In this document: piece by piece, positions 1,904 through 58,094 of the stretch
Layout of the letters: the number at the start of each line of letters is the position of its first letter
How positions within the stretch are numbered: position 1 is the stretch's first letter
From: an uncultured Candidatus Saccharibacteria bacterium
GTDB taxonomy: Bacteria > Patescibacteriota > Minisyncoccia > UBA6257
NCBI GenBank assembly: GCA_964479005.1
Contig: CAYZJA010000001.1
Coordinates: 80,642 to 144,641, forward strand
Reading direction: 5' to 3'
DNA length: 64,000 nucleotides
Made by a program: the position numbers and the translations under genes
The notes under the pieces: generated by a model
Told to the model about the DNA's origin: nothing
Database searches by the model: none
What the model saw: the letters and a program-made list of their open reading frames with translations, nothing else

Positions 1904-1935
1904 AAAACGTCAAAAATTAATTGAAAATTAAAATG

Positions 1936-1959
1936 CCCAAGGATAAGCTTATCCTTGGG
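1936..1959. terminator. perfect 24-nt palindrome between convergent genes (terminator for the minus-strand gene)
   Basis: cccaaggataag/cttatccttggg. On the minus strand it is followed by cattttaatttt; there is no U-run on the plus strand. Confidence 0.55.
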
Positions 1960-1977
1960 CGGTGATAGTGGGATTTA

Positions 1978-2214
1978 TTATTTCTTTTCATGATAAACTA
2001 CCATAAAGATTGCAAATATTGCTACGAGCAAATAAATAGTAAAATCCGAGCTCATTATACCAATATTTTTGACCGTTAATCTTTCTATTGAAGAAAACAT
2101 AATGATAATACAACAGACAAGAGATGTTACAATAGAAATTATAAGCAGAATTGTCAAAGACGCTAACACACGAGAGAAAATCTTCTCAATTTTAAAAGGA
2201 AAAAATTCTTTCAT
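1978..2214 (-). CDS. small membrane protein, unknown function
   Basis: 78 aa with two hydrophobic spans. Strong SD (aaggagg) about 8 nt upstream of the ATG on the minus strand. Confidence 0.6.
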   Translation of the reverse strand: MKEFFPFKIEKIFSRVLASLTILLIISIVTSLVCCIIIMFSSIERLTVKNIGIMSSDFTIYLLVAIFAIFMVVYHEKK

Positions 2215-5999: not shown

Positions 6000-6046
6000 G
6001 AACCTGCTTCGCAGAACCTTGTTTTTCATTTCATTCAAAATAACAA
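5996..6046 (+). repeat. dispersed copy of the AAGAACCTTG repeat family
   Basis: aataagaacctgcttcgcagaaccttgtttttcatttcattcaaaataa begins on the SDR stop codon. Related to copies at 23991, 27404-27527 (reverse orientation) and 30450. Confidence 0.6.
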
Positions 6047-12361: not shown

Positions 12362-12503
12362 AATGAAGATGAATGAAGATAAAATTGTCAACTTTTCAAT
12401 ATATAAAGAGGCGTTTGGTTTAGAACTGAACGTCTTTTTCATTAACAAGGACTAGCTTTACTAAATTTATGCCTTTGGCATTTGTCCTTATTTGGTGTGG
12501 GGG

Positions 12504-12531
12504 TTGACAAATTATTTTTCTTTGCTATACT
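12504..12531 (+). promoter_or_regulatory. promoter TTGACA-16-TGcTATACT (extended -10)
   Basis: ttgaca aattatttttctttgc tatact. Near-identical context to the 54247 promoter. Confidence 0.6.
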
Positions 12532-12535
12532 AAAG

Positions 12536-12595
12536 ATGCCGTTGTTTTGAGATATGTAGCTTGCTATATATCAATGGGCAGCGGCATTTTTTTTT
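12536..12595 (+). ncRNA. ~60-nt hairpin RNA, family member 1 (unknown function)
   Basis: Outer stem atgccgttg/cagcggcat, inner stem gatatgtag/ctatatatc with loop cttg, then a run of 9 T. Homologous to 54279-54342. Confidence 0.45.
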
Positions 12596-23965: not shown

Positions 23966-24424
23966 ATGGGTATTTTGAATATTTTTAAAAATAAGAACCT
24001 TTTTCGTTCTACTCAAAAGAACCTTGTTTCTCGTGATGCTCGAAATAAGAAAATCGAAGAAAAAAAGGTTGAGAAAGAGAAAACCAAAAAGCCAGTAGCA
24101 GAAGAAAAGAAAGTTGAAATAAAAGGGAAGATTGTTTTAGAAGGATCCTCTTCGGCATTGTTGATTAATCCTTATTTGAGCGAAAAGTCTACTAGTTTAA
24201 GAGAGCAAGAAAATAAATATATTTTTAAAGTTAGCCCTAGAGCGACAAAAAACGAAATAAAAAAACTTTTAGAAAATATTTACAATGTGGAGGTAACCAA
24301 GATTAATGTAATAAATACCCCTGCTAAGCCTAAAAGATGGAGACAGAAAAAAAGATATTTTAACAGGAGTAAAAAAATGATGGTTACCATAAAGAAAGGC
24401 CAAAAAATAGAATTAGGAATATGA
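23966..24424 (+). CDS. rplW: 50S ribosomal protein L23 with ~55-aa N-terminal Lys-rich extension (start uncertain)
   Basis: The L23 core starts near LLINPYLSEKSTSL...KYIFKV...NKIKKLLENIYNVEV. The upstream part of the ORF contains a repeat-family copy. Confidence 0.85.
   Translation: MGILNIFKNKNLFRSTQKNLVSRDARNKKIEEKKVEKEKTKKPVAEEKKVEIKGKIVLEGSSSALLINPYLSEKSTSLREQENKYIFKVSPRATKNEIKKLLENIYNVEVTKINVINTPAKPKRWRQKKRYFNRSKKMMVTIKKGQKIELGI
23991..24049 (+). repeat. AAGAACCTTG-family repeat copy inside the rplW 5' region
   Basis: ataagaacctttttcgttctactcaaaagaaccttgtttctcgtgatgctcgaaataag. The second half aligns to the unit ataagaaccttgttattcgcctttggctcataataag. Confidence 0.55.
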
Positions 24425-27203: not shown

Positions 27204-27404
27204 ATGGTAAAAGCAAAAGAATTACGATTAAAACCCGAAGAGGAATTAAATCAATTACTGTCTGAATCCCAAAAGAAATTACGGGAATTGAGGTTTAATT
27301 TGGCTAGCGGAAAAGTTAAAAACGTACGCACCATTCGTGTTTTGAAAAAGAACATTGCGAGAATTTTAACTATTTTAAATGAAGAAAATGAAAATCAACT
27401 CTAA
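27204..27404 (+). CDS. rpmC: 50S ribosomal protein L29
   Basis: KAKELRLKPEEELNQLL...LRELRFNLASGKVKN. Confidence 0.95.
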   Translation: MVKAKELRLKPEEELNQLLSESQKKLRELRFNLASGKVKNVRTIRVLKKNIARILTILNEENENQL

Positions 27405-27527
27405 TTATGAGCCAAAGGCGAATAACAAGGTTCTTATTATGAGCAAAGCAAATAACAAGGTTCTTATTATGAGCCAAAGGCGAATAACAAGGTTCTTATT
27501 ATGAGCAAAGCAAATAACAAGGTTCTT
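27404..27527 (+). repeat. tandem array A-B-A-B (32+30+32+30 nt) between rpmC and rpsQ
   Basis: A = attatgagccaaaggcgaataacaaggttctt (27404, 27466). B = attatgagcaaagcaaataacaaggttctt (27436, 27498). The two A copies are identical, as are the two B copies. Confidence 0.95.
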
Positions 27528-30253: not shown

Positions 30254-30658
30254 ATGAATAAAAATAGCAAAAGAGAGCAAAGAGAAAAAAGGCATAGAAG
30301 AGTAAGGGCAAAGATCCATGGAACAAAAGATAGGCCCCGTCTTTGTATTTTTAAATCCAATAAGCATATTTACGCTCAAATTATTAATGATGATAAGGGA
30401 TTTACACTCGTTTTTGCTTCAGATTTAGAAATCAAAGATTCAAAAAAAGATAAGAACCTTGCTTCGCAAGAACCTTGTTATTCGCCTTTGGCTCATAATA
30501 AAAAAATTAATTTAGCTCAAAAAGTTGGGGAATTAATAGCTAAGAGGGCAAAAGATAAAAAAATAACGAAAATTCTTTTTGACAGAGGTGGATTTAAATA
30601 TCACGGTCAAGTGAAAACTTTAGCTGATGAAGCCAGAAAACACGGATTACAGTTTTAA
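30254..30658 (+). CDS. rplR: 50S ribosomal protein L18 carrying an internal ~15-aa insertion
   Basis: [32 protein letters not shown] ... [26 protein letters not shown]. The insertion [15 protein letters not shown] is encoded by a repeat copy. Confidence 0.95.
30450..30499 (+). repeat. AAGAACCTTG-family repeat copy in frame inside rplR
   Basis: 30469-30499 aagaaccttgttattcgcctttggctcataa is the exact reverse complement of ttatgagccaaaggcgaataacaaggttctt in tandem unit A (27406-27436). It is preceded by a half-unit with hairpin cttgc-ttc-gcaag. Confidence 0.9.
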
Positions 30659-32920: not shown

Positions 32921-33551
32921 TATCATTTTTTTAGGACGCTCTGGTTCGGGAAAAGGCACACAGGCAGAATTATTAATGAAAAAATTCGCCTTAGTGAATA
33001 TAGATACAGGTGATATTTTAAGAAAGTTGGCAAGAAGAAAAGATAAATTTGGAAAAACGATTTTAGAAATCATGGACCAGGGGAAATTAGTTCCAATTTG
33101 GTTAGTACTTTATTGTTGGGTGGATAAACTTCTTAAAATTTCTTCCAAAAAAGGAATAATGATGGAAGGAAATCCTCGTCAGCTGGAAGAGGCAAAGATT
33201 TTAGAGGAAGTCTTTTCCTGGCTTGGGCGTGAAAATTTTAAAGTAGTTTATTTACGAACATCAGCAAAAGAAGTGATGCAGAGATTATTAATGAGGCGAA
33301 TTTGTTCTAAATGCGGCAGAGAATTTTCTTTGAATTTCACTCCAAATTTAAAAGAATGTTCTCATTGTAAAGGAAAATTGATTCGGCGATCTGATGATTA
33401 TCCAAAAGCTATCAAAAATAGAATGTTATTTTTTCAAAAAAAGATTTTACCTGTAATTAATTATTTTCGAAAGAAAAAAATTGTAATTGAGGTTAATGGA
33501 GAGGGTTCTATTGAAGAAATCCATAAAGGGATTCTTAAAAAATTATTGTGA
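32907..33551 (+). CDS. adk: adenylate kinase (zinc-lid type)
   Basis: IIFLGRSGSGKGTQA (P-loop). Lid CSKCGR...CSHCKGKLIRRSDD. Start is ATG 32907 or GTG 32901. Confidence 0.92.
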   Translation: MKSHNIIFLGRSGSGKGTQAELLMKKFALVNIDTGDILRKLARRKDKFGKTILEIMDQGKLVPIWLVLYCWVDKLLKISSKKGIMMEGNPRQLEEAKILEEVFSWLGRENFKVVYLRTSAKEVMQRLLMRRICSKCGREFSLNFTPNLKECSHCKGKLIRRSDDYPKAIKNRMLFFQKKILPVINYFRKKKIVIEVNGEGSIEEIHKGILKKLL

Positions 33552-34309
33552 TATATTTTAAAACTTCTCAAGATATCAGTATTCTACGTGAAGGCGGAAA
33601 AAAATTGGCATTAGTTTTAAAAAAAGTAACGCAGGCTGTTCAGCCAGGAATATCTACTGCTGATTTGGATAAATTGGCTTTTAATCTTATTTGTGAATAC
33701 GGGGGTAAACCCTCGTTTTTAAATTATCAACCAAGTTTTGCTAATAAGCCATTTCCATCAAGTTTATGTACTTCAATAAATGAAACTGTGGTTCATGGCC
33801 TTCCTTCAGAGAAAAAGATCTTAAAGCAAGGTGATGTGATTTCATTAGATTTAGGAATGGAGTATAAAGGATTATTTACTGATATGGCAGCAACAGTAGG
33901 CGTAGGAGAAATAAAGCCAATATATGAAAAATTGATAAAAATAACGAATGAGTCTTTATTACAAGCAATAAAAACGTCAAAGGTAGATAATACTTTGGGT
34001 GATATAGGTTATGCTATTCAAAAATGTGTAGAAAAAGAGGGATTTGTTGTTGTAAAAGGTTTAGTGGGGCATGGAGTTGGTTATTCTCCGCATGAAGATC
34101 CTGTTGTTTTTAATTATGGAACCCCGCATCAGGGGTTAAAATTGGAAGAGGGTATGGTTATAGCAATAGAGCCAATGGTGACTTTTGATGATGGAACTGT
34201 AAAAGAAGAAAAAGATGGCAGTTTTGTGACTCTCAATGGAAGAGTATCGGGTCATTTTGAACATACAGTGGCTATTACAAAAAAGGGACCAATAGTAATT
34301 ACGGAGTAA
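33548..34309 (+). CDS. map: type I methionine aminopeptidase (GTG start)
   Basis: VVHGLPS, DVISLDLG, GHGVG, IEPM, HFEHTV metal-ligand motifs. Confidence 0.95.
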   Translation: MIYFKTSQDISILREGGKKLALVLKKVTQAVQPGISTADLDKLAFNLICEYGGKPSFLNYQPSFANKPFPSSLCTSINETVVHGLPSEKKILKQGDVISLDLGMEYKGLFTDMAATVGVGEIKPIYEKLIKITNESLLQAIKTSKVDNTLGDIGYAIQKCVEKEGFVVVKGLVGHGVGYSPHEDPVVFNYGTPHQGLKLEEGMVIAIEPMVTFDDGTVKEEKDGSFVTLNGRVSGHFEHTVAITKKGPIVITE

Positions 34310-34330
34310 CAAAGGCGAGGAGATATATAA

Positions 34331-34518
34331 GCAAGTATTTCTCTTTCACTCCTACATTCCAGCAGAGACAAACAATACTCACTCACTCGGGAACACCTTC
34401 CGAAATTCCGCTTCGCCACGTTAAACGTGGCTTCGCTCCAGTTTCGGCTTTCCTTTTCGTTCGTTTCATTTGTTTGTATCTCTGCTTCCATTAATGTCGT
34501 TCAGGAGCAAATACTTGC
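34331..34518. ncRNA. ~190-nt GC-enriched imperfect rod-like hairpin (candidate 6S-like RNA or MITE; strand unresolved)
   Basis: Arms pair as gcaagtattt/aaatacttgc, ctctt/aggag, acatt/aatgt, agcagaga/tctctgct, caaacaa/ttgtttg, gaac/gttc, ccgaaa/tttcgg, with apical gccacgt/acgtggc. Large internal loops (15 vs 6 nt and 9 vs 10 nt). Confidence 0.35.
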
Positions 34519-34611
34519 TTTAATATTTTTTCAACAGCCTCTTCTTGCATTAAACTTTTATACATTCACACTTTGTTAATTGTTATTTGTTTTTTGTTTA
34601 TATCCTGGAGG

Positions 34612-34671
34612 TTGACCTTCGAGCAATAATGTGGTAGCATATAAATGTCCAAAAATGGACATTGTTTTTTT
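34612..34671 (+). promoter_or_regulatory. promoter (TTGACC-17-TGgTAGCAT) immediately followed by a hairpin + T7 terminator
   Basis: ttgacc ttcgagcaataatgtgg tagcat, then aatgtcc-aaaaat-ggacatt gttttttt starting 4 nt after the -10. Confidence 0.45.
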
Positions 34672-54217: not shown

Positions 54218-54246
54218 TTTATACATAAAGTTATCCACAATGGGAC

Positions 54247-54274
54247 TTGACAAGATTTAAATGTTTGCTATACT
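54247..54274 (+). promoter_or_regulatory. promoter TTGACA-16-TGcTATACT
   Basis: gggacttgaca agatttaaatgtttgc tatact. Paralogous to the promoter at 12504. Confidence 0.6.
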
Positions 54275-54278
54275 ACGG

Positions 54279-54342
54279 ATGCTGTCGTTTGGAAGTATTT
54301 GTTAGCTTGCTAATGGATATGGAAGAGTGGCAGCATTTTTTT
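54279..54342 (+). ncRNA. ~60-nt hairpin RNA, family member 2
   Basis: Outer stem atgctgtc/ggcagcat, apical ttag-cttg-ctaa, then T7. Shares the gatgcYgt...tagcttgcta...ggcagcRgcattttttt framework with 12536-12595. Confidence 0.45.
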
Positions 54343-57750: not shown

Positions 57751-57845
57751 TAAATATAAAATATTTTTATCATTTAATTTATAAAGCCAATGAAAGAGTT
57801 GGCAAATCATTATTAATATCATATTTTACTTAATTAAGAGTGGAC

Positions 57846-57874
57846 TTGACAAGAAAAAAAAAGTTTGCTATTGT
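57846..57874 (+). promoter_or_regulatory. promoter TTGACA-17-TGcTATTGT
   Basis: ggacttgaca agaaaaaaaaagtttgc tattgt. Same ggacttgacaag / gtttgcta context as the 54247 promoter. Confidence 0.5.
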
Positions 57875-57879
57875 GTTTT

Positions 57880-58036
57880 CACGGTGGGGCTTTTATTTTA
57901 GCCCCGCAGTGGGGCTTATGAATAATATTCAAAAAAGGGGATTTCATAATTTAAACAAAATTTCTTTTCGATTTCTTGCGTTTAGTAAAATTGAAAAAGA
58001 AGTTTTTTGAGGTTGGCGTTTTTGCGCCAACTTTTT
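57880..58036 (+). promoter_or_regulatory. structured leader with alternative hairpins and a terminator upstream of the 58095 gene
   Basis: ggggct(57886)-agcccc(57900)-ggggct(57911) can form two mutually exclusive hairpins. Terminator gttggcg/cgccaac + ttttt at 58012-58036. Confidence 0.4.
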
Positions 58037-58094
58037 AATATTAAAATTAATAAAAAAAATAAATAAAAAAATAAAAATTAATAAAATAAAAAAA

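Follow-up and report, generated by a model that had tools for sequence, protein, structure and literature searches.

Short palindromic DNA repeats of bacteria are the closest described counterparts of the element analysed here. ERIC/IRU sequences of enterobacteria (~127 bp) are single long imperfect palindromes of intergenic DNA, often lying just after genes in regions that are transcribed. Their hairpin is kept while their locations differ between related species, their copy number can be low, and they have no known transposase. MITEs such as the Correia/NEMIS elements of Neisseria are short and non-coding, have terminal inverted repeats, are present or absent between relatives, and form hairpins when co-transcribed. 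Rickettsia palindromic elements (RPE, 100-150 nt) are palindromic repeats scattered in a reduced genome. 6S RNA (RF00013) invites comparison by its outline: it is about 190 nt long, and its closing stem leads through a large internal loop to a distal stem.

Element A, a 188-nt imperfect palindrome found in a 64-kb window (the whole stretch of DNA analysed here), has the size class, the single long palindrome and the intergenic, often post-genic position of ERIC/IRU, the properties just listed for MITEs, the palindromic nature and reduced host genome of RPE, and the general layout of 6S RNA. It differs from ERIC/IRU in having no sequence relationship to them, in residing in CPR genomes, often nested with other palindromes, and in a copy number that looks low, about one per 64-200 kb, and apparently lower still than theirs. 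Unlike RPE, it was seen only in intergenic DNA and encodes no conserved peptide. Our literature search on MITEs or 6S RNA in CPR/Patescibacteria found no description, and the family is apparently undescribed so far. We consider it probable (about 0.6) that element A is a lineage-restricted non-coding palindromic repeat of Paceibacteria-like CPR, that is, mobile or horizontally exchanged DNA of the non-autonomous MITE/ERIC/RPE-like kind, and not a housekeeping RNA gene.

A rod-like hairpin directly after map

The map gene is the last of the rpsE-rplO-secY-adk-map run, and element A begins 21 nt beyond its stop codon (Table 1). On its 3' side it is directly followed by tttaatattttttc. The initial annotation had singled out this segment for its place directly after map and for its G+C enrichment; both points were borne out, with 45-47% G+C across the element against about 0.25-0.37 in the flanks (~30% in the surroundings). 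All the stems that it had listed were also found where it placed them, and they belong to the minimum-free-energy fold: gcaagtattt/aaatacttgc, ctctt/aggag, acatt/aatgt, agcagaga/tctctgct, caaacaa/ttgtttg, ccgaaa/tttcgg and the apical gccacgt/acgtggc. The result is a single long interrupted rod. As + strand RNA it reached -57.1 kcal/mol, whereas dinucleotide shuffles averaged -29.6 +/- 3.5 (z -7.99; none of 200 folded as well). The - strand RNA folded at -63.3 kcal/mol (z -6.06), and the single-stranded DNA at -27.5 kcal/mol (z -5.55). Covariance model R1 matched the window exactly at the limits of the element, with 182.5 bits, and no second copy was found within the 64 kb. Downstream, the promoter-like site and small hairpin of the next transcription unit were kept in all relatives at the map locus, with or without element A. 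The window belongs to a 551,616-bp JGI contig (Ga0309839_1000001). Its nearest GTDB species representatives are Paceibacterota/Patescibacteria MAGs, whose Map identity is only 57%; the host is therefore a CPR bacterium whose genome is very small.

Table 1. Coordinates of element A, of associated hairpins and of other features, in the window unless a contig is named.
Feature	Positions	Strand	Remarks
Element A	34331..34518	+	C-rich strand, co-oriented with map; limits from folds, model R1 and copy boundaries
5'-arm block CTCCTACATTCCAGCAGAGACAAACAATA	34349..34377	+	identical in 11/11 copies (alignment A1), 20 of its bases (34355-34374) being fixed by the search pattern itself
Apical module D	34417..34436	+	20-nt insert, CACGTTAAACGTG + GCTTCGC; forms apical hairpin
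7-nt direct repeat GCTTCGC around module D	34410-34416 and 34430-34436	+	
Left-arm remnant of hairpin B, AAAGGCGAGGAGATAT	34311..34326	+	aligns to B hairpin of L092
Right-arm remnant of hairpin B, TTTTTTCAACAGCCTCTTCTT	34526..34546	+	aligns to B right arm in L091, L092 and L098
map (methionyl aminopeptidase)	33548..34309	+	ORF; Pfam PF00557 on identical protein; context only
Promoter-like TTGACC-17-TAGCAT, then small hairpin and T7 run	34612..34663	+	next transcription unit; context only
ORF MEAEIQTNET...	34252-34491	-	rejected as a small protein gene
Repeat family C, 31-nt unit AAGAACCTTGTTATTCGCCTTTGGCTCATAAT	27399-27523, 30450-30504, 23995-24053, also 6013-6046		
Candidate small RNA or leader	57840-58040		intergenic; strong promoter-like TTGACA-17-TATTGT, ~150 nt with hairpins, terminator (GGTTGGCGTTTTTGCGCCAAC + T-run)
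Promoter-like direct repeat, TGGGxxTTGACA...TTTGCTATACTA	12498-12555 and 54241-54298		
B hairpins in other contigs	L092:3763-3850; L110:897-985; L109:5286-5480; L113:3690-3850; L117:1776-1846 and 1912-2062		
Unrelated hairpin directly after map	L017:3771-3890		Parcubacteria MAG; 120 nt
Folded ~150 nt element	L029:4450-4600; L040:4385-4540		Patescibacteria MAGs

Logan assemblies made independently from five sequencing runs (L001-L005, L007, L009, L010) were found to break within the hairpin. Of the contigs, four stop at 34474 and another at 34374, and the three downstream contigs recovered all restart at 34487, leaving a 12-nt gap and not a k-1 overlap. Micro-heterogeneity or a drop in coverage could be the cause; an invertible inner segment was rejected, as these three positions misfit recombination within an inverted repeat. 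Such palindromes break assemblies, all five of these stopping inside the element.

Element A recurs in unrelated genomic settings

Copies were found by searching JGI metagenome contigs for a 20-mer of the 5' arm of element A, which gave 12 loci. Eleven distinct copies of 166-199 nt were identified, in CPR (Paceibacteria-like) metagenome contigs. The ends of the 10 other copies fall within about 2-8 nt of those of the window element, and in BLAST comparisons among loci of different contexts, similarity stopped within a few bases of the element's ends. At least 6 unrelated genomic settings are represented. Besides the position after map (in the window and in L091, 2 nt past the stop codon), copies lie 7 nt past the stop of rplS and 36 nt before a tRNA (L104), 2 nt after gltX (L108), and 4 nt beyond a 129-aa ORF that converges with a nuclease-like gene (L111). 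Others are located between the divergent corA and hrcA genes (L101, L105/L112 and L110), between corA and rplU (L107), and between hrcA and corA in a block with hairpin B (see below) that is inverted relative to the genes (L106/L109).

When the 11 distinct copies were made into a covariance model, it recovered exactly these, with no further match in the window or across ~490 kb from other CPR loci. The initial annotation had held that multiple near-identical copies elsewhere in the genome would favour a MITE: there are none further in the 64-kb window, and one match each on a 152-kb and a 199-kb contig. The 20-mer scan gave a single match in 7 of 9 metagenomes, the collection being without some samples, including that of the source.

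The contexts bring to mind a selected cis-acting 3'-UTR stem-loop, ending or stabilising the upstream transcript and recruited repeatedly after genes. In the four contexts where a gene reads into the element, the same + strand is always co-oriented with it, a 4/4 count that is not significant (p about 0.125), and the element starts 2-21 nt past the stop codon. At the map locus a T-run follows it, with no other terminator before the next promoter. This T-run belongs to the right-arm remnant of hairpin B, and copies at other loci have no U-tract behind them. The scan flagged no terminator-like site at 34309-34600 on the + strand and the closing stem is A/T-rich, so that an intrinsic terminator was rejected. 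In addition, the next promoter of L096 and L099 follows the map stop codon directly, without a hairpin, the element of at least 6 genomes lies between divergent promoters with no gene reading in, and the wobble pairs favour the opposite strand. We regard a selected 3'-UTR function as rather unlikely.

Among 32 GTDB CPR genomes, no sequence relative of element A was found after map. The sole structural analogue, in L017, is an unrelated hairpin with a 31-bp perfect A/T-rich stem and a G+C-rich core, and the position after map may be a general landing place for palindromes. We also noted that L029 and L040 have in common a strongly folded and conserved element ~700 nt downstream of map, with no Rfam match.

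Presence, absence and decay between close relatives

At the map locus, the window was compared with relatives whose Map proteins are 86-91% identical. L091 (Map 90%) carries a copy of element A with 84% identity, whose apical palindrome is different and longer. In L092/L093 (Map 91%), only ~30 nt of the 3' end are left, beside a complete 85-nt hairpin B. The element is absent at this locus in L094, L096/L097, L098 and L099. A similar picture is seen at the corA locus, where L101 holds a full element A. Between L101 and L117, CorA is 98.3% identical and the flanks are 97.7-99.6% identical, yet the interval bounded by CIRCE (the HrcA operator) and the corA start codon differs entirely (1,362 nt in L117 vs 525 nt in L101), and only a ~45-nt stub with A-like ends remains in L117. 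The L117 version of this interval also holds an extra 133-aa gene. No element A was found at the corA locus of L113 (CorA 91%).

The corA-hrcA intergenic segment thus appears to have been swapped wholesale between the L101 and L117 strains, and its replacement is a direct sign that exchange happens; palindromes of this kind mark intergenic segments exchanged between genomes. Since relatives do without it, element A seems dispensable. A stable lineage-wide gene, as 6S RNA would be, does not fit, the element being absent or decayed where neighbouring proteins are 86-98% identical.

We then compared the similarity of the copies with that of their hosts. The elements of L101 and L107 are 94.5% identical for a CorA identity of 62.6%, those of L105 and L107 87.5% identical for a CorA identity of 88%. 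For the window copy, the closest match is the one at the gltX locus (95.2%), the other map-locus copy being at 91.1%. As far as these sequence comparisons go, the similarity of element A is decoupled from host divergence. Among the corA-locus genomes, element A is 87.6-93.5% conserved, against 80-85% for the corA coding DNA and 58-81% for the spacer. Strong constraint or recent exchange would explain this conservation above coding DNA, and either fits.

Nesting with hairpins B and D

Hairpin family B has arms like AAAGGCGAGGAGATGTTGTTGAAAAAAC; its apex is either small, GCTAATCGCTA, or taken up by large G+C-rich inserts. The family turns up both after map and in the corA-hrcA interval, and has a wider distribution than element A. 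Once element A is taken out, the two window flanks listed in Table 1 can be aligned with the complete 85-nt B hairpin found after map in L092. Since they match both of its arms, element A occupies the apex of B in the window. Arms of B adjoin element A at both the map and the corA loci.

Module D in turn sits at the apex of element A. Three copies have it (window, L104 and L111) and 7 lack it (L101 and L105-L110); in one it is replaced, the different and longer palindrome of L091/L103 standing in its place. A separate copy of module D lies outside element A in L110.

Element A might also be a DNA-level hairpin or cruciform site for a recombinase or replication protein, an attachment or resolution site that is itself immobile. 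The significant fold of the single-stranded DNA is consistent with it, as are the much higher conservation of one arm, the wholesale swapping of the intergenic segments that the element occupies, and the inversion of the A+B block at the corA locus. No integrase or recombinase gene adjoins any copy, and the ends of the element are unlike attC or dif core sites, for which reason an integron attC or dif-like site was rejected. The asymmetry between the arms is also partly an artefact of the search pattern. We find an immobile DNA site very unlikely.

The hairpin is maintained, with a strand bias

In the alignment of the copies (A1), 95.4% of the cells are paired on the + strand, compared with ~40% in slid controls. 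Ten pairs have changed on both sides, as in CCGAAA/TTTCGG vs CCGGAA/TTCCGG vs CCAGAA/TTCTGG, or in the closing stem, GCAAGTATTT/AAATACTTGC vs ACTGAATATT/AATATTCAGT. The covariation score was 0.163 vs 0.091 in shuffles, 0 of 500 of which scored as high. Covariation, which the initial annotation had proposed as a check on the fold, is therefore present. Since the two arms of a palindrome can also evolve together at the DNA level, with no role as RNA, we read the covariation as the mark of a maintained hairpin, not of an RNA.

Wobble cells favour the - strand, with 21 G.U vs 4 A.C overall, a bias that comes in part from composition and from the search pattern fixing one arm, only the closing stem (13:1) being free of it. 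The mean fold energy over the copies is likewise lower on the - strand (-61.1 vs -47.8 kcal/mol on +). Both biases hint at a folded - strand RNA or single-stranded DNA. Orientation points the opposite way, the + strand being the co-oriented one in all 4 contexts into which a gene reads. One arm is far more conserved than the other, an asymmetry due in part to the search pattern.

A more ambitious version of this idea is that the G/T-rich minus strand of element A yields a functional structured RNA or a folded DNA single strand. Selection would keep it at about one copy per genome, and it would move between related CPR genomes together with its flanks. If true, it would be a small horizontally mobile non-coding gene of an undescribed kind and not a selfish repeat. 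We hold this to be unlikely, and a function of the minus-strand RNA or folded DNA as such to be quite unlikely.

6S RNA and other identities

The layout of the hairpin had led the initial annotation to propose a 6S-like RNA, and a search with RF00013 and the other Rfam models on both strands as a check. At the gathering score, the whole window gave only RNase P RNA and three tRNAs, with no 6S. A permissive search (E<=10) of both strands detected no 6S, SRP or other family in 901 nt around element A, nor any family in 206 nt searched alone, and 7 other copy-carrying loci gave none on either strand at E<=5. The closing stems and the large, poorly paired internal region are conserved across copies. 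The supposed terminal stem is just 6 bp, unlike the distal stem of 6S RNA, and most copies either lack the apex or have another in its place. No conserved promoter-like or terminator-like site was found within or beside the conserved unit. With no covariance-model match, a patchy presence that includes absence or a stub at the same locus in close relatives, and no promoter or terminator travelling with the unit, the 6S RNA reading is rejected for this dispensable element. A false 6S RNA candidate is thereby removed, and palindromes of this sort can be mistaken for RNA genes in structure-based screens.

The same data bear on a lineage-specific small RNA gene of 6S-like or other type, single-copy, trans-acting and probably transcribed from the - strand. 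The rod shape with its large internal loop, the compensatory changes, the wobble asymmetry in favour of the - strand, a conservation above that of the neighbouring coding DNA, and the apparent number of about one copy per genome fragment or metagenome would all suit such a gene. The absence of any Rfam match on either strand of 8 copies, and of a conserved promoter or terminator in or beside the unit, argues against it. At the corA locus the element sits upstream of both divergent promoters; it is missing or a stub where neighbouring proteins are 86-98% identical, and its apex is freely inserted, deleted and replaced. Finally, for hosts diverged to a CorA identity of 62.6%, 6S RNAs are expected to have an identity far below 94.5%, so that the similarity between L101 and L107 is far above the expectation for 6S. 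A small RNA gene is therefore unlikely in our view.

Two further identities were rejected. Because copies adjoin corA, we considered an M-box (Mg2+) riboswitch (RF00380) as corA leader. It has no Rfam match, and a corA promoter-like site, TTGCTT-17-TAAACT, stands between the element and corA, which places element A upstream of that promoter and outside the corA transcript. A small protein gene was rejected as well: the minus-strand ORF of Table 1 has no ribosome-binding site, and its frame and length shift between copies through indels of the apex and a 1-nt deletion. This only recurrent ORF being broken by indels in alignment A1, the copies have no conserved ORF.

Element A as a probable mobile palindromic repeat

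A MITE was the other suggestion of the initial annotation, and it stands in part. The sharply bounded palindrome in at least six unrelated contexts agrees with it, as do the length of 166-199 nt, the inverted-repeat ends (GCAAGTATTT/AAATACTTGC or ACTGAATATT/AATATTCAGT), and the finding of occupied, empty and remnant sites at both map and corA. The target-site duplication is what does not hold: the flanks of 10 copies have no consistent direct repeat, and instead are A-rich on the left and T-rich on the right, extending the stem. No transposase or parent IS with the same ends emerged from reading the flanks, and phage, plasmid and viral collections gave no match. Carriage by phages or plasmids was rejected, BLAST and four pattern scans of viral contigs being empty. 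Element A departs from known MITEs in its inconstant terminal repeats; no target-site duplication or parent IS was found, and no burst of copies was seen in the stretches covered. Given the low copy number and the lack of both target duplication and transposase, we read it as a non-autonomous mobile palindrome of the MITE/ERIC/RPE-like kind.

Three points speak against mobility or recent spread. First, the one-copy pattern also fits a single-copy gene. Second, terminal stems that vary and yet remain complementary are not expected if a transposase reads a fixed terminal sequence. Third, selection instead of recent spread can account for a conservation above that of the adjacent corA coding DNA.

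As a mobile palindrome, element A would spread by inserting at AT-rich positions shortly downstream of stop codons, or in the loops of hairpins already there, possibly by means of a recombinase provided in trans. As an additional route, whole intergenic segments may pass between related genomes by homologous recombination. When an upstream gene reads into the element, map being the case here, it would probably be passively co-transcribed as a long 3'-UTR stem-loop, and the T-run from B may help terminate the map operon transcript. The data show that even CPR genomes of ~0.55 Mb hold small nested palindromic repeat families that turn over between close strains.

Other repeats and sites in the window

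A further repeat, family C, has four tandem units between rpmC and rpsQ. It is also found in-frame inside rplR, as an 18-residue peptide, and at the N-terminus of the ORF 23966-24424, and a near-identical peptide repeat is present in GrpE of L110. It is this family, and not element A, that shares with RPE the in-frame insertion within ORFs, including rplR.

Outside the repeats, the segment at 57840-58040 ends in a clean terminator and is a candidate small RNA or leader, with no Rfam match. Two similar, strong promoter-like sequences were found as a direct repeat (Table 1), and probably represent the consensus promoter of the organism.
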